Source of the DNA: Escherichia phage KS_A8
Length of the DNA: 59,853 bases
Strand: one strand, 5' to 3'
Sequence record: PP627279.1
Under the pieces are notes generated by a model. That model worked only from the letters and a program-made list of their open reading frames with translations, was not told where the DNA came from and did not search any database. This document shows positions 18,615-59,833 of the stretch, piece by piece. How positions within the stretch are numbered: the stretch's first letter is position 1; each line of letters starts with the position of its first letter. Both the position numbers and the translations under genes were made by a program.

Positions 18615-21600
18615 GTGGGAGATATTATGGCAACTCGTTTACGTGGTACTTTAGTTGATGGTTTAAATAAACCAATTGTCAACGCTACAGTTGCGCTTTT
18701 AGCAAAAGGGAATAGCTTATTGGTATTGTCCGGCAGTGAAGCTATCTTTAAAACAAGTGCAACCGGAACATATGATATTATAGTCCAAACGGGCTATTAC
18801 AAGGTTATTATCGGTCCGCAAGGCAGCGAGCCTTATAAAGCTGGTGAAATTGCCATTTACGCGGACAGTAAAGAAGGTACGCTGAATAACTATTTAACTT
18901 CCTGGGCACCGGAAGAGCTAACTCCGGAAGTCATTGCACAAGTTAAAGATTTAGTTTCACAAGCCGAGACAGCTAAGAACGCTTCAGCAGCATCCGCAAC
19001 TAAATCCGAACAGGAACGCGTTAAAGCAGAAGCTGCGGCACAGAATGCTGTAAACACTGCTAACGGTATGAAAGCTTCTATTGGTTTGACTACTGCACCA
19101 AGACATGTTGCAGATATTACAGTCAATCCGTCATCATTCTTGGGTTTTATACGGATTTTACGGTCTAGTACAGTAGGTTATCCGGATATTGCGTCCTCAG
19201 AAAACGTATTGGCCGGTTTTGTTTCCGCTATGGATGGAACCCCTGGATTTATAGGTGTTTTTGTTGGAGACATGACCGGGACTATATATAGCTATAGATG
19301 GATTAAGGACGTTGGCGTTACATGGTGGAAGCAGGTTAACTATTCTACTGTCAACAGATATACCCAGCTAAACGCAGAAACTAATTTTACAAACCAATTA
19401 GGCAATGCAAAACTCCTCATAGATAATAATAAAGTTTGGGGGGCATATGACAATGAAAATAAACGCTTCATACCTCTAGCAATAGCTCAAGGTGGTACAG
19501 GAGGAACTACTGACGCGGATGCTCGTACAAACTTAAGACTTGGTCCTAACGATACACCTCAATTCAGAAACCTTAATCTTGTTACAGTAGCAGACTCCGC
19601 ACAAGCGCCTTCCGGCATTGTGAGCGGTTATTTAAATAATAGCTCTGGAGTTCAAAGATGCCGCTACCGCATATATTCTGAAATAAGAGGTGACAATAAA
19701 GCGTGGTTAACCTTACACCTTCAATCAGACACAGCAACAAATAAATATGCTGGTCTAAGCGTTGATGGTAATTTTCAAATCAATGGAAATTTTATTGGTA
19801 ATGCTTTGCAGTTGTCAGACGCTCCAAATTCCAGGATTAATCTACAGTTAGATCGTTTTTATCAAAGTGCTAACGAAACGGTTATTTATACTCCGTCTCG
19901 TCAAGCATATATGACAATTTCTAATAACAAGACTTGGGGCGCTTATGACGCGGAAGCTCAAAACTTCATCCCTTTACCTATTAATAGGGGAGGGACTGGT
20001 GCTTTAACAATATCCGACGCTAAGACTAATCTTCAAATTCCGTCTGTAGGTGGGGGTGATTGGTTAACTTATAACGCTCCTCCTGGCGTGGAAGCTGGAA
20101 AGTATTATCCAGTTATCATCGATATGGCATACAGCTCTTTATATGCTTCTGGTGCTTTTATAGATATAAAGACACGTTCTGCCGCTGGTGACGATCCAAT
20201 GAACTGTTGCACTTTTAACGGATTTATTAGATGTGGTGGTTGGAGCGACCGAAAAGACGGCGGTTATGGTTACTTCAACAACTATGCAAGAAATGAAATT
20301 GCTATGAAATGTATTCTTTCTTCATCTAAAGATGCGGAAAGATACGTTGCAATATATGTTGAAGGTCGTGGTTTCCCTCTTCAATTGCGTGTCCCTGCAT
20401 TCTGTGAAGTAACAGTACCAACATCAAACTTTACTTATAAAAATACAACCTATGCGTGGGGTACAGCTAACCCTGCAACGGATTCTGTAGCTATAAACAC
20501 CTTATTTGATTTTTCATTAAACCGCGTTGGTTTTTACCAGGCCACAACAGAAGGTAATTATTATATCGGAAATGGGGAACGTATTGTTTTATCTAACGGA
20601 ATGTCTGTGGGTGAAGAGTTAAGTCTAGCCACACCTAAAGTGTCTTTCAGTGGAACCATTGCGGCTGGTAACGGTGTCATTGCAGATGGAACATCTGTAT
20701 CCAACGCTACTTTTTATAGCCGTTATCGTGTTGGTGACGTAATATATGGCAGCGAGTTTCGCGCAAGTGAAAATGCTGGTCAAATTATAGTCCGCGATCC
20801 AACGGGTGGGACTGCGCATCAATTCTTTAACTTCAATCTCAACGGGACATTCAGCGCCCCCGCTGGTTTGCTATCTTCTACTGGAGTAGATTGGAACGGT
20901 CAGATTAATACCGTCAATAAATTCTATGGGATTGCTGGACAAGTTAACACACCAGAAAACAATGTGGTTTATGGTGGTATACATGTTGGATTCAGCGGCA
21001 ACTATGCTTTCCAGATATGCGGAAGGAAAGGTAAATCCTTCTTCCGCACATTTGAAGCAGGAGTAGAAGGACAATGGCAACAATTAGTAACTAAAGGGAA
21101 CTACGGAGTTGGTCTAATTGGAACTTTTAAACCGGAAGATGGTTCAAGTGGTTTTTACACTGATTCCGATGGGGCAAATACTTGGTCGCCTGCTAACGGA
21201 GGGGGTTTTCAATCTTCGTATACTCAGCAGCGAATATTCCAATTTTGGATGACATCAAGCTCGCAGGGGTTTATTCGTTTTAATGATAGCGGTAACGCTC
21301 AAGCTTCTAAGACGGATAAACCTTGGACAACACTTCAAGCAGCTGGCACATCGGATATTAACTTCAAACGTGTGCACGGTGAAATGGACACAGATGTTGC
21401 GTTAGATAATATTAGCAAGCTTGAATTTGTTTATTTTAACTACTTGTCCGACGGTCCGGAGCGTGAAATCCGTAGGGGTATTATTGCTCAACAGGCCCAG
21501 GAAGTTGATCCTGAATATGTGCATAGCGCTGAAACATCCGGGAAAATGACTTTGGATTCTAACCCATTGTTATTGGATGCATTAGCTGCAATACAATCCC

Positions 21601-30050: not shown

Positions 30051-30659
30051 TTATTTACAAGCTTCAAGGAACTCCCGGCGCCATTCTTTACCAATATCGC
30101 TACCATGCTCCAGTTCTGTAGCTCCCCGGAACGCTTTGGTAATGGTAGAGCTTCCGCATACCTGCTTAACCCCGCGCGATTCCATGCACATATGCTTAGC
30201 ATCGATGTAAACGCACACAGCTTTCGGGTCTAAATGCTCCTGGATAGCATCTGCAATCTGGTTAGTAAGACGTTCCTGAACTTGCAGTCGACGACTAAAA
30301 GCATCCACAACGCGAGACAGTTTACTGAGCCCCACAATGCGACCGTTAGGAACATACCCCACAACAGCGCGACCGATAATAGGGGCTATATGGTGTTCAC
30401 AATGGCTATAAACTGGAATATCACGGACGATGACCATTTCATTTGAACCTTCCGCCCCGTCTTCAAAGGTTTTAAACAGACCAGCAATATCCACATTATA
30501 ACCGCCAAACCATGTAGCATAGGCTTTAGCGACACGATATGGAGTCTCTTCCAAACCTGGACGTAATTCAGTGCAATTTTCAATTCGAGTTAGTAAAGCT
30601 CGCACCGCGCGAGTAATTTCAAATTGAATACTTTCGTCATTAATAGTAAATTTTGGCAT
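30051..30659 (-). CDS. folE: GTP cyclohydrolase I
   Basis: CEHH active-site motif in ...VYSHCEHHIAPIIGRAVVGYVPNGRIVGLSKLSRVV...; start set at MPKF (RBS AAGGAA); an upstream in-frame ATG at 30692 is also possible. Confidence 0.85.
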   Translation of the reverse strand: MPKFTINDESIQFEITRAVRALLTRIENCTELRPGLEETPYRVAKAYATWFGGYNVDIAGLFKTFEDGAEGSNEMVIVRDIPVYSHCEHHIAPIIGRAVVGYVPNGRIVGLSKLSRVVDAFSRRLQVQERLTNQIADAIQEHLDPKAVCVYIDAKHMCMESRGVKQVCGSSTITKAFRGATELEHGSDIGKEWRREFLEACK

Positions 30660-30694
30660 GGTTTGCAGTTTCCTTGTTGTTAATGTGGTCATAC

Positions 30695-31216
30695 TTACAG
30701 GCTATAGTTTACGTGACATTTTGAAGTTTCTTCGATGGTGCATTCTACAAGTTGAACACCATGTTCGTCAAGCAGTTGCGGCCCAATTACTTCAACCATA
30801 TATGCAGCTAAGTTTTCCGCAGTTGGGTTAAACGGTAAAGATACCAGCGAACCGAAATATGCGTCCGTATGCTCGCAAGGGTCTTGTTCACCCGTTGCAA
30901 TTTCATGATGGATACACTCGCGGACTTTTGTAAATAGCGGGTCATTTTCCCAATGCAGGAATTTATGATCCCAGTTATCTTCCAGCCACTGGCAGAGCGT
31001 AGTTTTAACCACGCTAAAATCAATAACTCGCCCAACGCTGTCCAGACCGTCCTCAATCAGCTTTCCTCGTGTCACTACTTTTCCGCATCCATGTTTCGGC
31101 ACAACCTTAAAGTGAAACTTATAGTTGTGACCGTGGAGGTGGCGACATTTGCTTTCGTGACCTACAACACGATGTCCGGCGCAAATTTCATGTGAACGAA
31201 TTACTGTATAGCTCAT
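30695..31216 (-). CDS. queD: 6-carboxy-5,6,7,8-tetrahydropterin synthase
   Basis: 173 aa; CAGHRVVGHESKCRHLHGHNYKF matches the QueD/PTPS Cys/His zinc-binding signature. Confidence 0.8.
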   Translation of the reverse strand: MSYTVIRSHEICAGHRVVGHESKCRHLHGHNYKFHFKVVPKHGCGKVVTRGKLIEDGLDSVGRVIDFSVVKTTLCQWLEDNWDHKFLHWENDPLFTKVRECIHHEIATGEQDPCEHTDAYFGSLVSLPFNPTAENLAAYMVEVIGPQLLDEHGVQLVECTIEETSKCHVNYSL

Positions 31217-31716
31217 TTTAATGCCTCTTTAGACTGTTCAATTTCTAATGCACGCTGTGCGGATGCAATAATATCTTTCAAGTCTTCTACCAGACTTTTA
31301 TGACCGCGTTCGCCCGGCTGCAACGCCTTTTTAATTAAATGTTGTAAAGCTGGGTTAGTTGTTTTCCAAGCTTCCAAGACATCATACACGTCCACGATGC
31401 ATTTTACAACATTGCCGTTTTGATCTTTACCATAAATAATTTTCTGATATTTATTCATGGGAATTTTAGATGGTTCAATAGATTGTTTGACGTAATCATC
31501 CGCAACGATATATCGCCAGGCTATAATATCTTGAATTTTATAAGGGCTATTCTCATCCATAGCTGAACGCCCTTCTATAGCCCAATCCCATCCATGTAAT
31601 AGATTCTTAACGTGTGTGCCGTTGCGCAAACGAACTTCAAACTTCTCATTACGAAGAAAAATAGGCATTCCTTTACCGTCGTGTAGGTGCCAAATTTTAT
31701 TCAAATTATCTTTCAT
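31213..31716 (-). CDS. hypothetical protein in the deazaguanine cluster
   Basis: Start set at MKDNL just after the yhhQ-like stop; 167 aa; no motif recognised. Confidence 0.3.
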   Translation of the reverse strand: MKDNLNKIWHLHDGKGMPIFLRNEKFEVRLRNGTHVKNLLHGWDWAIEGRSAMDENSPYKIQDIIAWRYIVADDYVKQSIEPSKIPMNKYQKIIYGKDQNGNVVKCIVDVYDVLEAWKTTNPALQHLIKKALQPGERGHKSLVEDLKDIIASAQRALEIEQSKEALK

Positions 31717-31717
31717 T

Positions 31718-32197
31718 TTACGCTCTCGCTGTACGTGAATGAACTTCGTAAACAACCCAAAGGATAGCAGACGCTGTGAACTTACTTAAGCTCATTGCTA
31801 CCATCGATCCCGGATTAACAATACCTATAATACTTAAGAACACAATGGAGTCAATTGGTACAGCTACCAAAGAGCTAATAAATACTCGTTGATGGAAAGG
31901 CTTCTTGGTGACCGTGTATACTACATAGTCCGCGAACTCACTAAGCGCAAAAGACGCAACGGATGCAACTACAACCGCAGGATCACCGAACACCCAGCTA
32001 AGGATGCAACCAACAATCATTGCAGGGATGACGCCTTTGCCAGCGTTACGCTGTGCGTAATCACGCAGAACAAAGATAATACCTACAAAGAAAGCCATCA
32101 TTGGGACTACGCCAAGTGGCGTATTAAGCATCGGAAGGTAAGAAAAGCCCAGGTTTACGAATGTAATTGCAGCCAGATAAGCAACGATAAATTTCAT
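31718..32197 (-). CDS. queuosine-precursor transporter-like membrane protein (YhhQ/COG1738-like, putative)
   Basis: 159 aa, several hydrophobic helices, embedded between queD and queC; family assignment is from context and memory. Confidence 0.4.
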   Translation of the reverse strand: MKFIVAYLAAITFVNLGFSYLPMLNTPLGVVPMMAFFVGIIFVLRDYAQRNAGKGVIPAMIVGCILSWVFGDPAVVVASVASFALSEFADYVVYTVTKKPFHQRVFISSLVAVPIDSIVFLSIIGIVNPGSMVAMSLSKFTASAILWVVYEVHSRTARA

Positions 32198-32317
32198 ACT
32201 TTTGTTCTCCAGTTTTAACAGCGCTATTCGCTGGTTGTTGGGTTTAAAAGCTTTAGTAGTATAGTTGGGTTACCGCACCCTAAACAATGCGCTAGCGGTG
32301 CGGTTTTCGCGGTAAGA

Positions 32318-33025
32318 TCAAGCTTTGCTAATAAATTCGCTGTACCCTTTAGCACGCAGTTTGCACGCAGGACATTCACCGCAACCATATCCCCAGTCAT
32401 GCAGAGTGCGGCGGACGCCGTTATAGCAAGTATGGGACTGTTCAATTACTGTGGTTAAGAAGCCAACCTTATCCGCCAGTTCAAACGTTTCCGCTTTATT
32501 TAAACGCATAAGCGGGGTAACGAAATGAATATCTGTTTCATATCCAACGTTTAACGTAGCTTCAAGCAAGTCTACAAACTGCTGGCGGCAATCTGGATAA
32601 CCGCTATAGTCTGTTTCACAAACACCCGTAACCACATATCGGGCGCCAACTTTCTGCGCGTAGGCGTGCGCGGTAGTCAGGAAAAGTGCATTACGGTTTG
32701 GCACAAAGCTTGCCGGAAGGTTGTTGTGCTGTTCGTGATGTTCGTTAACATCACCTTCGTTCCCGATTAAAGCGCTATTGCCAATCTGTTTCAAAGCAGG
32801 TAATTCAAAGACAACAAATGGGACATCGTGCTCTTTACAAATTTGATCAGCACAAGCCAGCTCAATGTTATGACGTTGACCGTATGCAAAACCAATAGCG
32901 TAGACCTTATCATAGTTATTAAGTGCAAGACCTAAACAGGTCACGCTGTCCTGGCCGCCAGACAGGACCACAACGGCGGAGTTATGATTTTTTACAGGGA
33001 ATACCAGTTTATCTAATTTATTCAT
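32318..33025 (-). CDS. queC: 7-cyano-7-deazaguanine synthase
   Basis: 235 aa; PP-loop VVVLSGGQDS near N-terminus; C-terminal zinc-site cysteines CYNG...CGECPACKLR. Confidence 0.85.
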   Translation of the reverse strand: MNKLDKLVFPVKNHNSAVVVLSGGQDSVTCLGLALNNYDKVYAIGFAYGQRHNIELACADQICKEHDVPFVVFELPALKQIGNSALIGNEGDVNEHHEQHNNLPASFVPNRNALFLTTAHAYAQKVGARYVVTGVCETDYSGYPDCRQQFVDLLEATLNVGYETDIHFVTPLMRLNKAETFELADKVGFLTTVIEQSHTCYNGVRRTLHDWGYGCGECPACKLRAKGYSEFISKA

Positions 33026-33026
33026 C

Positions 33027-33215
33027 TTAGAAACCTTTAAGACTAATATTGAGGTTAATGACTACTTGTTCCACCACCGCTTCAGATGTTACCTGACGCT
33101 GGTGTATTTCAAGCTCCGAATGTATTTTCTTTGATGCAGCGCGGCAAATAGCGTCATTCAACTCGTCCTGTAAACGTTGAATTTTCTGCATAAGAATTAC
33201 AGTTTCTTCATTCAT
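33027..33215 (-). CDS. hypothetical protein
   Basis: 62-aa helical ORF between queE and queC. Confidence 0.25.
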   Translation of the reverse strand: MNEETVILMQKIQRLQDELNDAICRAASKKIHSELEIHQRQVTSEAVVEQVVINLNISLKGF

Positions 33216-33420
33216 CTTCTACACCTTTAATATCACAAGGGTTGATTGTTACATTTGACATCACAATTGGATGATTGCGTGCCCCGATTGTACTAACGTG
33301 ATTAATATCTAATTCAACATGCACTCCCTGCATAGTAGCGTGAGCAATTGCAGAATTAAGTTTTTCTACCAGCTCAGTGATCATTTCCTGATGCTGTTTC
33401 GCTTCTTCCAAAGTGATCAT
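33208..33420 (-). CDS. hypothetical protein
   Basis: 70-aa ORF between queE and queC. Confidence 0.25.
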   Translation of the reverse strand: MITLEEAKQHQEMITELVEKLNSAIAHATMQGVHVELDINHVSTIGARNHPIVMSNVTINPCDIKGVEDE

Positions 33421-33675
33421 TTAAACCTCCGTTAATGTTTGAGTCCAGTCTAAGCCTTCAAGGTCTACATCAGCTATTTCATCGTACTCGTAAGCTCCCG
33501 GATCTGCTGGCAGCCATCTATCAAATCGATGACTGAGTTCTGGAGGAATTGCTTCATACCCCCAAACCTTCCCATCCTTGTCGGCTGCCAGATAATCAAC
33601 TCGACTTGGAACGGTTAAAGTGACACCACAAAAATTAACATCTTTAGTATGCACAACCTGACTTAATACACGCAT
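33421..33675 (-). CDS. hypothetical protein (paralog of 54998-55300 product)
   Basis: 84 aa; shares AADKDGKVWGYEA and VDLEGLDWTQTLTE segments with the 54998-55300 protein. Confidence 0.3.
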   Translation of the reverse strand: MRVLSQVVHTKDVNFCGVTLTVPSRVDYLAADKDGKVWGYEAIPPELSHRFDRWLPADPGAYEYDEIADVDLEGLDWTQTLTEV

Positions 33676-34382
33676 TATTCCACCCCGATATATTTGTGAA
33701 CCTGAAGCTGCAACGTGTACCCGTGTTTCATACAGCTTTTGACAACCGCTTGGATGTTACTGTGGTTAAGATCTTCATCCTGCTCGTCCATTGGCTGCAA
33801 ATATATCTTACCTTTGAACCCCTTCGGAGGTCTAGCGATAAATGGCGTAGCTTGATGATCTAATGCTTGAAGCGGTAAACCGTCTTCCACGTTTACACAG
33901 CACGCTTTAAGCACATATTTAAATGCATTTGCACGGTACAGCACAGAAGGATGAATTTTTGAAGTCTTAGGACTGCATACAATTACAGGTAACTGGGAAA
34001 AGTTCTTAGGTAAAGGCATAGACCCGTTAGTTTCAATCTGTACAAGATACCCGCGCGATAACAGTTGTTCAATAAACGGGTTAATTTGCTGACGGAACGG
34101 TTCACCCCCAGTAATGACCACAAGTGAGGTGCTATTGCCTGATTCCAGCTTACGGCTTTCGATTAAACGCATGATATCAACAATGTGGTAAAGAGAACGA
34201 CCAACAGTATAATCCGTGTCGCAGCCCGGGCATTGCAGGTTACATCCAGCAAGGCGCACAAATACCGCAGGTTGACCGCAGAATGGACCTTCACCCTGAA
34301 TGGTAGAGAATACCGAATGCACGTCTAAATACATATCGTTTTCTTTAGAACGAGACTCGGGAGCTTGTTGATTAATATTCAT
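33675..34382 (-). CDS. queE: 7-carboxy-7-deazaguanine synthase (radical SAM)
   Basis: 235 aa; Cys cluster AGCNLQCPGCDTDY near N-terminus as in QueE radical-SAM enzymes. Confidence 0.8.
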   Translation of the reverse strand: MNINQQAPESRSKENDMYLDVHSVFSTIQGEGPFCGQPAVFVRLAGCNLQCPGCDTDYTVGRSLYHIVDIMRLIESRKLESGNSTSLVVITGGEPFRQQINPFIEQLLSRGYLVQIETNGSMPLPKNFSQLPVIVCSPKTSKIHPSVLYRANAFKYVLKACCVNVEDGLPLQALDHQATPFIARPPKGFKGKIYLQPMDEQDEDLNHSNIQAVVKSCMKHGYTLQLQVHKYIGVE

Positions 34383-56048: not shown

Positions 56049-56441
56049 ATGCTATTAGTCGTCACCGGAGGTCGAGATTTTAAGCATGTGGAGTATATTT
56101 ATGCTCAATTGGATAAGCTGCATATGCAAAGAAGGATAACCACACTTCGCCACGGTGACGCTGACGGTGTTGACCGCATTTGCGCACAGTGGGCAGAGCG
56201 CAACGGTATTAAGACAGAAGCGTTCCCTGCCCCGTGGGACAATCTTTCCTTACCAAATACCAAGATACGGTATAACGCTAAGGGTGCTTATAATGCACAA
56301 GCTGGCGCTTACCGCAATCAATTAATGCTGGATACTGATCCTAAACCAGATCACGCTATTGTGTTTCCTGGCGGAGCTGGTACTATGGATATGTACAGAC
56401 GGATTAAAGCATCCGGTATCCCTTACACATTAGCGGAGTAA
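56049..56441 (+). CDS. SLOG/LOG-family Rossmann-fold protein (DprA/LOG-like, putative)
   Basis: 130 aa; N-terminal VVTGGRDF and C-terminal VFPGGAGTMDM resemble the LOG-family PGGxGT motif. Confidence 0.35.
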   Translation: MLLVVTGGRDFKHVEYIYAQLDKLHMQRRITTLRHGDADGVDRICAQWAERNGIKTEAFPAPWDNLSLPNTKIRYNAKGAYNAQAGAYRNQLMLDTDPKPDHAIVFPGGAGTMDMYRRIKASGIPYTLAE

Positions 56442-56916: not shown

Positions 56917-57342
56917 ATGTCAGTAAATTTTGTCAAACAGCCAACTTTAAATACATGCGTTTCTGCGTGTTTGGCAATGATCCTTAATAAACCTGTTGAG
57001 AAGGTTATTGAGGAATTTCATAGTCGTTATTATAACAACTGGGAGATCACTATCAGCGAATATTTGACTAAAAACGGCGTCCAGCATCATTGTTCAGAAG
57101 GTGGTGGGCGTGAAACTTTGCATATGGGAGGTTTGTTCCTGTGCACGGTGCCAAGTCTTAATATTCCTGGCGCATTGCACCAGATTGTGATTGATATGAC
57201 GGATCACAAGTTTATTGTGCATGATCCAATTAAAGGATGGGAAGGTAAAAAGTTCTATGTTGGTCCGGATCAAGATCCTGAAGAGCCTGGAGCTTTTATC
57301 ATTCATACTTGGGTCAAAGACGTTGAAATCCTGCCTTATTAA
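56917..57342 (+). CDS. papain-like cysteine peptidase (C39-like, putative)
   Basis: 141 aa; QPTLNTCVSACLAMIL fits the C39 Q...C..A.LAMI pattern; downstream HKFIVHDP histidine motif. Confidence 0.45.
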   Translation: MSVNFVKQPTLNTCVSACLAMILNKPVEKVIEEFHSRYYNNWEITISEYLTKNGVQHHCSEGGGRETLHMGGLFLCTVPSLNIPGALHQIVIDMTDHKFIVHDPIKGWEGKKFYVGPDQDPEEPGAFIIHTWVKDVEILPY

Positions 57343-57404: not shown

Positions 57405-57590
57405 ATGACCAAACTATACGCCGGATTGTTTTTATTTGCGACGTTGATGTTCGCTGGGCTTTATACCTATACAGTAGTCGAACAACCTTCCACGGTTATC
57501 CGAATCTTTGCAAGTACAGGGCTTTGCATCTGTCTTATTCTATTTGTTTTATGCATTGTTATTATCCAAGACCAAAGGAAAGTTAAATGA
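57405..57590 (+). CDS. small two-helix membrane protein
   Basis: 61 aa, two hydrophobic helices. Confidence 0.3.
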   Translation: MTKLYAGLFLFATLMFAGLYTYTVVEQPSTVIRIFASTGLCICLILFVLCIVIIQDQRKVK

Positions 57591-58051
57591 CCACAATTGC
57601 GTTTGATGGAAAAGTATTAGCTGCGGACCGTGGCGTTATGCGCGGGGAAGCTGTGACTGCTTATAAGAAAGTTCATAGCGTGAATGGACATCGTGGACGG
57701 TTTTTACTGGGCTTGTGCGGTTTGACAGCATTTACCGATCAGGTGTTGCGTTATTTTAATAGCGCGGAACCTGTTAAGTTCCCTGATATTAAACTTTACA
57801 GCAAAGATGATGATTACGGGCAAACTTGCGGTCTTGCTATCACTCCGGAAGGTACTTGCCATTTTATTTATAATGATGGTACTTTGAGCGAGCCCATGCT
57901 GGATGGATGGGGATCTGAGGGTAGCGGTTGTGTGTTTGCCGCTGGTGCATTAGCCGCTGGTGCAAGCGCAAGCGAAGCCATTGAGCTGGCAATTAAACAC
58001 ACCACATGCGCATTCCTGGGAGTTGATACAATATCATTTGAGGGTTTTTAA
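57587..58051 (+). CDS. Ntn-hydrolase fold protein, HslV/proteasome beta-like (putative)
   Basis: 154 aa; begins MTTIAFDGK (Thr at position 2 as potential N-terminal nucleophile); Gly-rich GSEGSGCVFAAGALAAGAS resembles the HslV GSGG segment (from memory). Confidence 0.3.
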   Translation: MTTIAFDGKVLAADRGVMRGEAVTAYKKVHSVNGHRGRFLLGLCGLTAFTDQVLRYFNSAEPVKFPDIKLYSKDDDYGQTCGLAITPEGTCHFIYNDGTLSEPMLDGWGSEGSGCVFAAGALAAGASASEAIELAIKHTTCAFLGVDTISFEGF

Positions 58052-58312
58052 ATGACTACATTCAGTCACCTGATCCCACCTGCTTATCATAGTAAGGTAG
58101 TTGACCACGGGACGCATGTTGTAATTGGTGGCGAAATCTTTATCACAGATAACGAGGAAATCGCCATTGCAATTATTGACAGCACTCAGCATGACTTTAT
58201 GGTTATCCTGCAACACGAACCAGATAACTTCACTTTTTACTCCAGCTACGGGGTCGATAAAGGTGGAAAAAGCCTTGTTAGCTGGTACATTAGCGAGTGG
58301 TTTGACGGGTAA
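58052..58312 (+). CDS. hypothetical protein
   Basis: 86-aa ORF. Confidence 0.3.
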   Translation: MTTFSHLIPPAYHSKVVDHGTHVVIGGEIFITDNEEIAIAIIDSTQHDFMVILQHEPDNFTFYSSYGVDKGGKSLVSWYISEWFDG

Positions 58313-58394: not shown

Positions 58395-58832
58395 ATGGCA
58401 CTTCAACCTCGTGGTATTCGTAATAACAATCCAGGCAATATTCGCTGGGGTGATAATTGGCAGGGCTTAGTTCCTGCTGATAAGCGAACCGATAAATCTT
58501 TTGCTCAATTCACGCAACCGATTTACGGCATTCGTGCGCTAGCGAAAATCCTGACAAACTACACCAAACGTGAAGGCTTGCCCAATGTGGGTAAGAAAAA
58601 CATCGACACTGTACGTGAAATTATCGCTCGCTGGGCACCGCCTAACGAAAACGATACGGAAGCGTATATTCGCTCTGTTGCCAAAGCAATTGGTGTTCAA
58701 CCTAACGATCCAATTAATGTCTTCGACAAGGCAATTATGTCAGGATTGGTGAAAGCAATCATTCGTCATGAAAATGGCATGATGCCCTATACCGATGACG
58801 TAATTAACCGCGCTATTGCAATGGTACTTTAA
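58395..58832 (+). CDS. conserved hypothetical protein, candidate endolysin by position
   Basis: Start set at ATG 58395 (RBS GGAGGAA); 145 aa with RGIRNNNPGNIRWG motif; directly upstream of holin and spanins. No catalytic motif recognised. Confidence 0.3.
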   Translation: MALQPRGIRNNNPGNIRWGDNWQGLVPADKRTDKSFAQFTQPIYGIRALAKILTNYTKREGLPNVGKKNIDTVREIIARWAPPNENDTEAYIRSVAKAIGVQPNDPINVFDKAIMSGLVKAIIRHENGMMPYTDDVINRAIAMVL

Positions 58833-58868
58833 CTGACGGGGCGTTAGCCCCTTTTATTTGGAGGGAAC

Positions 58869-59213
58869 ATGTTCAATTCACCCAACGAACATTGGGCAGT
58901 TCTAGCGGGGTTTGCGTTTATCTCCCTCATTGGGGGAGCTCTCGGTTATGTCATGCGTACAATAGACGCTGGTAAGAAAGTACGGGCAAGTATTGCGTTT
59001 CTTGAAGGCTTATCCGCCGCTTTCTTTGGCGTTATAATGTATGCGATCTACAGGGAGTTTAACATCAGCCTTTGGTTCGCTTTTGGCCTTGCTGGCCTAT
59101 TTGCTTGGGCAGGTTCACGTGCTACGCTAAAAGCCCTAACGTCGCTTATAGCTTCACGGACAGGGATCAAACTCGATTCAGGGGACTGCAAACATGAAAA
59201 CGATTCTAAATAA
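58869..59213 (+). CDS. holin (putative)
   Basis: 114 aa with three hydrophobic helices and charged C-terminus; immediately upstream of Rz/Rz1. Confidence 0.5.
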   Translation: MFNSPNEHWAVLAGFAFISLIGGALGYVMRTIDAGKKVRASIAFLEGLSAAFFGVIMYAIYREFNISLWFAFGLAGLFAWAGSRATLKALTSLIASRTGIKLDSGDCKHENDSK

Positions 59214-59670
59214 CTTCTTCGGTTTTATAAAAACTAAACCGCGTCTGTTTATCGAGTATTTGATGATCGGCGCGGTTGTGTTTTTATGCGGGGTGGCTGC
59301 ATACTTGTGGTCACAGAACGAGCTCAGCAAAACTAATTTAAATCATGCTGAGCAAAGACTAACCGTTGTAGAACGGGACAATGCAAAGCTGGGCGAAGCT
59401 GTTGTATTTCTTGCATCCCAACGGGAGAAGGATACTGAATCCTATCGAAAATTGGCTTCAGCAATTGAAAGTGAGCAACATAACCACAGGTTGCTTCAGG
59501 ACAAATTAAAAGCACTGGAGAAAAGCAATGCCGACGTCAAAGCTTATCTTAATGAGCGTGTTCCTGATGATTTGCGCAGGCTGCTCGACGGAGATACAAC
59601 CTCCACCACCGCCGCAGATAGTGAAGATAAAACTTCCGGCCCATCTGTTGGTAGAATGTCGGGAAGTTGA
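59194..59670 (+). CDS. Rz: i-spanin (Rz-like)
   Basis: 158 aa; N-terminal transmembrane helix, coiled-coil periplasmic domain; contains the Rz1 start in another frame. Confidence 0.6.
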   Translation: MKTILNNFFGFIKTKPRLFIEYLMIGAVVFLCGVAAYLWSQNELSKTNLNHAEQRLTVVERDNAKLGEAVVFLASQREKDTESYRKLASAIESEQHNHRLLQDKLKALEKSNADVKAYLNERVPDDLRRLLDGDTTSTTAADSEDKTSGPSVGRMSGS

Positions 59671-59833
59671 TAAATATCCTTTGGTTTATACAAGGGACAT
59701 TATCCAACGTTTGCAGGATACAGAAACAGCTCTGACTGAATGTAAACTGAGGGTTAAGGAAATCATACGCTATGAAGCTGAAAATGTTTCGCTTGATTTT
59801 GTAGGATCAAGCAATTATATTCAGCCTAAATAG
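59528..59833 (+). CDS. Rz1: o-spanin (Rz1-like lipoprotein)
   Basis: Signal peptide ending in lipobox-like ICAGC followed by proline-rich STEIQPPPPPQ; overlaps the Rz 3' end. Confidence 0.55.
   Translation: MPTSKLILMSVFLMICAGCSTEIQPPPPPQIVKIKLPAHLLVECREVDKYPLVYTRDIIQRLQDTETALTECKLRVKEIIRYEAENVSLDFVGSSNYIQPK

Follow-up and report, generated by a model that had tools for sequence, protein, structure and literature searches.

The lysis cassette of a Seurat/CAjan-type coliphage contains an endolysin of the Enc34/M4Lys/PM2-P5 family

Introduction

The endolysin family CDD PHA02564 was defined around the ORF39 endolysin of Hafnia phage Enc34, the catalytic domain of which is available as PDB entry 7Q47, released in 2021 (Cernooka et al., 2022; PMC8943055). 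When devoid of its C-terminal domain, ORF39 was muralytic on cells of E. coli, P. aeruginosa and H. alvei with a permeabilised outer membrane. [quoted passage not shown] The GH73 enzyme TM0633 is among the structural neighbours of the Enc34 domain and the GH23 lytic transglycosylases are distant structural relatives (Cernooka et al., 2022; PMC8943055). Another member, M4Lys from Salmonella phage BSPM4, degrades peptidoglycan in vitro. Analysis of the muropeptides indicated glucosaminidase activity, and HPLC suggested endopeptidase activity in addition (Bai et al., 2020; PMC7143992). The protein P5 of Pseudoalteromonas phage PM2 has been re-interpreted as an Enc34-like endolysin in which the W/Y/E catalytic triad is conserved (Yutin et al., 2022; PMC9502842).

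Among the systems closest to the one analyzed here is that of the Seuratvirus CSP1, the holin and endolysin of which were co-expressed in E. coli as the holin-endolysin system of this phage (Kim and Ryu, 2025; PMC13577005). Lysis was suppressed by three co-expressed CSP1 genes, and collapse of the proton-motive force led to rapid lysis of those cells. The suppression was overridden by overexpression of the holin but not by overexpression of the endolysin (Kim and Ryu, 2025; PMC13577005).

Location and composition of the lysis cassette

The DNA analyzed here, referred to as the window, is the whole stretch of 59,853 nucleotides from Escherichia phage KS_A8 (PP627279.1). The region is ~99% identical at the nucleotide level to Escherichia phages SLUR25, SLUR63, GottfriedDienst, SeppeHuegi and CAjan, with a slightly lower value for Seurat, and judged by its sequence the window is a Seuratvirus genome (Queuovirinae). 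The window ends in a 1.5-kb segment (58395-59833) with four genes of the same orientation, at exactly the coordinates given in an earlier note on this DNA (Table 1). They encode an endolysin, a holin and two spanins and make up the ordinary lysis cassette of a Seurat/CAjan-type coliphage. The same lysis genes are present in Seurat, CAjan and the BASEL phages.

The CAjan genome, which begins with the gene for the small terminase subunit (base 1) and ends with the lysis genes, is collinear with the window, and therefore, on a circular map, the cassette comes to lie immediately before the terminase genes. The cassette of Hafnia phage yong3 is likewise found just upstream of the terminase genes. 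In contrast to the P1 LydA, P2 LysB/LysC and lambda Rz/Rz1 systems, the endolysin gene precedes the holin gene. In the related phage Vid5, the slot upstream of the Phage_holin_3_3 holin is occupied by a DUF3380 muramidase, which marks this slot as the endolysin position and fits the notion that it is a swappable one.

The explanation that we consider best for the whole locus is a canonical three-step Seuratvirus lysis cassette with an endolysin of the Enc34/M4Lys/PM2-P5 type (probability about 0.9). The present analysis contributes the homology, the fold, the conserved residues, the topology and the overlap of the genes; that members of the family are muralytic, and that the 97%-identical orthologue forms a working pair with its holin, is known from the literature.

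Table 1. Features of the lysis cassette and of the block of genes upstream of it (positions in the window)
Feature	Position	Strand	Remarks
C39-like cysteine protease (putative)	56917-57342	+	upstream block; 141 aa
61-aa two-helix membrane protein	57405-57590	+	upstream block
HslV-like Ntn protease	57587-58051	+	upstream block
86-aa protein	58052-58312	+	upstream block
endolysin	58395-58832	+	145 aa; soluble single domain, Enc34/PHA02564/PM2-P5 type; predicted catalytic Glu126, with Trp80 and Tyr91; N-terminal RGIRNNNPGNIRWG motif
hairpin	58838-58859	+	GGGGC-GTTA-GCCCC, then TTTTATTT; terminator scan, RNA fold
holin	58869-59213	+	114 aa; predicted class I topology, three transmembrane helices, LydA family
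i-spanin (Rz/LysB-like)	59194-59670	+	158 aa; N-terminal membrane anchor, then charged, helix-prone periplasmic domain
o-spanin (Rz1/LysC-like outer-membrane lipoprotein)	59528-59833	+	101 aa; +1 frame relative to i-spanin

The gene preceding the holin encodes an endolysin of known family

The first gene of the cassette has an ATG start with GGAGGA upstream. The earlier note had put forward its product as an endolysin candidate with a conserved-looking RGIRNNNPGNIRWG motif and none of the lysozyme, amidase or endopeptidase signatures. The motif, which comprises residues 6-19, is conserved indeed, and R6, G7, R9, N10, N12, P13, G14, N15 and I16 are invariant in an alignment of 48 homologues. 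The statement about signatures holds for Pfam-A and NCBIfam, where scans returned 0 families at E <= 0.1 and no curated model of the classical endolysin families (lysozymes, amidases, endopeptidases, others) was matched, but it does not hold for PHROGs and the PDB. A profile search, one of the checks that had been proposed for this gene, yielded PHROG 873 (endolysin) with an E-value of 4.7e-63 for residues 3-144, and phmmer aligned residues 5-130 with PDB chain 7Q47_A (E 7.1e-34). With Pfam-A and NCBIfam empty, it is on the PHROGs and PDB sequence searches only that the endolysin was assigned; together with the neighbouring holin these matches uphold the candidate.

Residues W79, Y95 and E131 of Enc34 align with W80, Y91 and E126 of the 145-aa protein, all three of which are invariant in the 48-homologue alignment. 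D33 and E85 are the other invariant acidic residues. The all-helical fold can be superimposed on 7Q47, apart from which it has no close structural neighbour; outside the family, the GH73 glucosaminidases 8yxk and 4qdn come closest. The protein thus clearly belongs to the Enc34/M4Lys/PM2-P5 family of endolysins (CDD PHA02564). M4Lys, with which it shares the PHA02564 domain, is ~49% identical (tblastn), and the CSP1 orthologues of endolysin and holin, which are encoded in the same gene order, differ by few substitutions and are 97% and 94% identical, respectively. As part of the overall explanation, we regard it as very probable that this endolysin of 145 residues consists of the catalytic domain on its own, and that this all-helical domain is a strongly diverged relative of the alpha-lobe of lysozyme with distant kinship to GH73 and GH23 enzymes. 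By analogy with Enc34 ORF39, M4Lys and CSP1, the protein is predicted to degrade peptidoglycan.

The window protein differs from its characterized relatives in architecture. In Enc34 ORF39 the catalytic domain is followed by a C-terminal transmembrane domain, and M4Lys brings about holin-independent cell lysis via such a domain, whereas the 145-aa protein does not have this full-length, holin-independent arrangement of catalytic plus C-terminal transmembrane domain and ends right after the catalytic part. It has no SAR or signal sequence and no attachment domain, and its maximum 19-residue hydropathy of 0.92 indicates that there is no transmembrane segment. Because of the lack of any hydrophobic stretch and of a SAR or signal sequence, we infer that it would be a conventional soluble, cytoplasmic, holin-dependent endolysin.

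Bond specificity and role of the endolysin

Among the possible activities we favour that of an N-acetylglucosaminidase because of the GH73 structural neighbours (TM0633 in addition to 8yxk and 4qdn, the nearest structures outside the family) and because the muropeptides released by M4Lys were glucosaminidase products. The bond specificity of the family is contested, given both glucosaminidase and endopeptidase data for M4Lys and the annotation of many homologues as lytic transglycosylases. It is conceivable, with a probability well below that of the favoured activity, that the same cassette works with another chemistry and that its endolysin is a lytic transglycosylase, a muramidase or a bifunctional enzyme with additional endopeptidase activity. 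The single catalytic Glu is also typical of the distantly related GH23 lytic transglycosylases, and the HPLC data on M4Lys point to the additional activity. The label 'peptidoglycan lytic exotransglycosylase' carried by homologues from SP6-like phages is, however, an annotation transfer and not the result of an assay, and both the GH73 structures and the M4Lys muropeptides argue for the N-acetylglucosaminidase.

The family is large and its members occur in diverse contexts. It comprises 4,568 clusters at 90% identity in a large protein collection, and 791 phage records carry the domain. The free-standing endolysin form is found in Seuratvirus, related siphoviruses and D3112-like Pseudomonas phages, and in Chivirus (Enc34; M4Lys of BSPM4) the domain is joined to a membrane domain at the C-terminus. 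The domain also resides inside internal virion or tail proteins, as in SP6-like phages, in the 'tail injection transglycosylase' of phage D6 and in Gp29 (PDB 9vvp); a literature search on 9VVP, the second PDB match of the endolysin, found no paper. In addition, the domain is present in the tailless Vinavirales. P5 of phage PM2 and the endolysins of the Vinavirales belong to the same family as the window endolysin, but these phages are tailless and contain a membrane, and the genomic context differs from that in the window.

This distribution raises the question whether the 145-aa protein is mainly a virion-associated peptidoglycan hydrolase that serves entry and not lysis. Tail-injection transglycosylases, tape-measure and head proteins and SP6-type internal virion proteins (PHROGs 7182, 2276 and 992) contain the domain, as does the 1295-aa Gp29, and many homologues are named 'structural protein'. 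Nevertheless, we consider a virion role very unlikely. In the window the domain is free-standing, devoid of an attachment domain and adjacent to holin and spanin genes, and in CSP1 it is the orthologous protein that acts together with the holin as endolysin. The label 'V: structural protein P5', which homologues of the gene bear in some records, originates from PM2 protein P5, and this protein has itself been re-interpreted as an endolysin. Furthermore, no other endolysin candidate was found in the genome. An endolysin encoded elsewhere is what the earlier note had named as evidence against its proposal, and none was seen either in the Pfam content of the tape-measure, tail-tip and fibre proteins or in the annotations of CAjan and CSP1, which list no other lytic enzyme. 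The Pfam domains in the former set are limited to TMP_3, HK97_TLTM, tail-tip/J, DUF6950 and fibre domains, none of them muralytic. This content speaks against a second muralytic domain in the tape-measure and tail-tip proteins.

Even less probable is a new, unrecognized class of muralytic enzyme, the type to which the earlier note had thought its unassigned candidate might belong. The protein has no Pfam-A or NCBIfam match, none of the 120 homologues among the matches listed has a precomputed Pfam entry, and 7Q47 is the only close structure. Yet the family has been described (CDD PHA02564, PHROG 873) and has a crystal structure as well as published activity, in the form of turbidity assays and muropeptide analyses. 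The GenBank record of Seurat (KM236243) already notes that the gene is 'similar to Enterobacter phage ENC34 endolysin', and it is named 'endolysin' or 'putative endolysin' in RefSeq CAjan and in the BASEL phages. The candidate is therefore neither unassigned nor of an unrecognized type.

Holin and intergenic hairpin

The second gene had been described as holin-like with three helices, and this description is confirmed. Its product scores above the cut-off of Pfam PF16083 (LydA family, Phage_holin_3_3; E 4.8e-10, 39.8 bits versus 28.4), matches PHROG 785 (holin; E 8e-25) and has three hydrophobic segments at residues ~8-29, 40-61 and 64-82, the third of which is weaker. By profile and predicted topology, with three transmembrane helices, it is a class I holin of the LydA type, and LydA of phage P1 belongs to the same PF16083 family. 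The holin of the deposited CSP1 record starts 11 codons further upstream than that of the window. An N-terminally extended holin of this kind is ruled out here by an in-frame TAG at 58845-58847, located 8 codons upstream of the ATG at 58869.

A terminator scan revealed a GC-rich hairpin between the endolysin stop codon and the ribosome-binding site of the holin gene. Folding of the RNA from 58826 to 58868 gave -14.8 kcal/mol (z -2.9), and the GenBank record of Seurat has the hairpin annotated as 'terminator'. Its sequence resembles that of an intrinsic terminator or attenuator. The hairpin separates the endolysin from the holin gene, which counts against simple co-expression of the two. We regard it as conceivable, but unlikely, that the hairpin couples translation of the holin to that of the endolysin.

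An overlapped pair of spanin genes

The i-spanin gene overlaps the 3' end of the holin gene by 20 nt. Its product matches PHROG 89 (Rz-like spanin; E 7.4e-11) and PHROG 5975 (E 1e-61) and has a single N-terminal transmembrane segment at residues ~16-41 followed by a charged remainder, in agreement with its earlier designation as an Rz-like i-spanin. In BASEL phages the 158-aa gene is annotated as i-spanin. With the TIGR03495 LysB model, the protein reached an E-value of 1.4e-8 and 35.1 bits, which is below the cut-off of 92.75.

The o-spanin gene starts inside the i-spanin gene, shares its last 143 nt and ends 163 nt past the i-spanin stop codon, the two genes being in frames 1 and 2. The predicted signal peptide MPTSKLILMSVFLMICAG is followed directly by C; the lipobox is ICAG/C with Cys19 and the mature protein starts with CSTEIQPPPPP. 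The protein matches Pfam PF23793 (Rz1-like LysC) with an E-value of 4.7e-12 and 46.1 bits versus a cut-off of 27, in an alignment that begins at residue 14 and spans the lipobox, as well as PHROG 456 (E 3.5e-14). With P2_Rz1 (NF038368) it scored 26.0 bits versus a cut-off of 27. The Rz1-like lipoprotein that the earlier note had seen overlapping the i-spanin 3' end in another frame is thereby corroborated. Its proline-rich mature region is so only in part: the PPPPP near the N-terminus is present, but the remainder is not rich in proline, and with 8 Pro in 83 residues the mature protein stays far below lambda Rz1.

Taken by their sequence features, the two genes fit the two-component spanin pair of 'overlapped' architecture in every respect. 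The same architecture, in which the i-spanin is anchored by an N-terminal transmembrane segment and the o-spanin, a lipoprotein, is encoded in the +1 frame, is realized in LysB/LysC of phage P2, whereas in lambda Rz/Rz1 the o-spanin gene is embedded. The window proteins are family-level relatives of LysB and LysC and not equivalogs or orthologues.

The start of the o-spanin gene deserves attention. The ATG at 59528 is preceded by GGAG 7 nt upstream, and the full-length open reading frame is kept in 33 phage records, including those of CSP1 and of Hafnia phage yong3, whose o-spanin is 44% identical and has its own lipobox, MTRSKLILMSVFLLSCVSC. In CAjan (gp91) and BASEL phages, the annotated 'o-spanin' starts at a TTG corresponding to 59648 in the window, which results in a 61-aa product. 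This short form is ruled out since it has neither signal peptide nor lipobox and since the alignment with the LysC profile already starts at residue 14 of the long form. In the Seurat record the gene is split across the record ends and unannotated, it is also unannotated in the yong3 record, and only a 50-aa 3' fragment is annotated in the deposited CSP1 record (CSP1_030). As judged from these sequences, the conserved start is the ATG at 59528, which provides the lipobox, and the gene call of the earlier note is better than several public ones. That public records truncate or omit the Seuratvirus o-spanin is one small new point. Neither Seurat nor CAjan is listed in the spanin tables that supplement Kongari et al. 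(2018).

The C39-like protein and the upstream block

The C39-like protein is encoded on the same strand four genes upstream of the endolysin. Its match to the Pfam C39 family is weak (E 0.037, 14.3 bits versus a cut-off of 22) and limited to residues 3-25, and its homologues form 16 clusters, all from similar phages. Q8, C14, H88 and D103 are invariant in these 16 homologues and conform to the papain-like Gln/Cys/His/Asp layout. For the AlphaFold2 model (pLDDT 89.9), the best Foldseek match was the C39 domain of the peptide-processing PCAT1 (probability 1.0, TMq 0.56, E 1.4e-3), followed by staphopain, a papain-like toxin and AvrPphB; wall hydrolases of the CHAP or NlpC/P60 type were not among the best structural matches. 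No signal, membrane segment or cell-wall-binding domain was seen in the sequence, and PHROG 4049, to which the protein belongs, has no function attached. Sequence searches of the PDB with the C39-like and the HslV-like protein gave chance-level matches only. From conserved residues and predicted fold, the C39-like protein looks like a papain-like protease and not like a cell-wall hydrolase.

The genes of the upstream block other than the C39-like gene are kept in the divergent relative yong3. This conservation and the adjacency to the cassette gave rise to the idea, which we regard as unlikely, that the block might form a proteolytic module not described so far, with a role in the timing of lysis or in the processing of lysis proteins. 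If it were true, the genes of the block would not be unrelated accessory genes.

Papain-like cysteine hydrolases, e.g., CHAP and NlpC/P60 enzymes, can be endolysins. The suggestion of the earlier note that the endolysin role may fall to the C39-like protein, as a murein endopeptidase or amidase of the cysteine-peptidase type, could appeal to the four invariant residues and the position of its gene, but we give it next to no credence, as a bona fide endolysin already adjoins the holin and no second lytic enzyme is needed, and as the conserved residues and structural matches are those of peptide-processing papain-like proteases.

Discussion

The Enc34-type endolysin, the LydA-type holin and the overlapped spanins would act together in the following way. 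The endolysin, having no signal sequence or membrane segment, would build up in the cytoplasm as an active enzyme. At a programmed time, the three-helix holin would open large holes in the inner membrane and release it. The enzyme would then cut the glycan strands of murein, most likely as an N-acetylglucosaminidase, with E126 as the presumed single catalytic glutamate and W80 and Y91 as aromatic residues that may position the substrate. Finally, the complex of i-spanin and o-spanin, which would span the periplasm, is expected to fuse inner and outer membranes. What we infer in this sequence of events is which bond is cleaved, how large the holin holes are and that the membranes are fused.

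Both the cassette and its endolysin family are already known, the latter having been characterized structurally and biochemically in 2020-2022. The discovery value of the locus as a textbook holin-endolysin-spanin system is therefore small, and the practical benefit is modest. The comparison with public records points to an error made systematically in annotating the o-spanin of Seuratvirus. The locus also draws attention to the fact that Pfam and NCBIfam have no model for a large endolysin family, with the consequence that pipelines relying on profiles only label its members 'hypothetical' or 'structural protein P5'. As a soluble, non-toxic member of just 145 residues, the window endolysin would be a handy subject for settling which bond is cleaved by this family.

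Architecture of the lysis cassette

In public Seuratvirus records, the o-spanin gene is wrongly annotated. The conserved start of this gene is ATG 59528, which yields a signal peptide and the lipobox residue Cys19. In CAjan gp91 and the BASEL phages, an internal TTG was used as the start instead, giving a product of 61 aa without the lipobox. The gene is divided between the two record ends in Seurat, and it carries no annotation in the record of the divergent Hafnia phage yong3.

Between endolysin and holin, RNA folding gave a hairpin of -14.8 kcal/mol (z -2.9), which the Seurat record labels as a terminator. In the minimum-energy fold, its outer stem is formed between the stop region of the endolysin gene and the GGAG ribosome-binding site of the holin, a hint of attenuation or of translational coupling. 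The related phage Vid5 differs from Seurat (KM236243) in that a DUF3380 muramidase occupies the same endolysin slot and is followed by a Phage_holin_3_3 holin and a LysB-like protein (PMC6266253). Endolysin types thus seem to be swapped inside a cassette that is otherwise conserved.

Features discussed in this part, with window coordinates
Feature	Position	Remarks
235-aa protein	21891-22598 (in 18627-23584)	Gly-rich hydrophobic N-terminus, Cys-rich C-terminus
Putative DNA-modification cluster	28856-34382	DpdA-like transglycosylase, FolE, QueD, QueC, QueE
Small papain-like cysteine protease (C39-like)	56917-57342	invariant Q8, C14, H88, D103
61-aa protein	57405-57590	two hydrophobic helices
HslV-like Ntn peptidase	57587-58051	N-terminus MTTIAFDG; PHROG 1040, E 6e-32
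86-aa protein	58052-58312	third gene within 57405-58312
GC hairpin and T-run	58826-58868	between endolysin stop and holin start
o-spanin	59528-59833	long form from ATG 59528; short public form 59648-59833

Genes upstream of the endolysin and elsewhere

The C39-like protein has just 16 homologue clusters among 5.8 billion proteins, all of them from Seuratvirus-like phages, and the nearest fold to its predicted structure is the C39 domain of PCAT1. Its gene is separated from that of the endolysin by three genes (57405-58312), a stretch also kept in yong3. The HslV-like product of the second matched Pfam Proteasome at only E 0.015, and no HslU-like partner was seen nearby. A 130-aa protein (56049-56441) has a YspA/cpYpsA-related SLOG domain (PF10686, E 2e-18) and also matches PHROG 289 'GTP-binding domain'.

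DNA modification of the 7-deazaguanine or queuosine type is expected for Queuovirinae. The region placed by collinearity with CAjan gp35-gp45 is a putative cluster of this kind, judging by how CAjan is annotated and by the agreement in ORF sizes.

A candidate for lysis suppression

In Seuratvirus phage CSP1, three genes jointly cause lysis suppression: CSP1_021, whose product is the holin-binding antiholin candidate, the tail fibre gene and the following gene (Kim and Ryu, 2025; PMC13577005). The 235-aa protein is 100% identical to its CSP1 counterpart, which we equated with CSP1_021 by deletion arithmetic. Given this identity, the lysis-suppression trait of CSP1 is probably shared by phage KS_A8.
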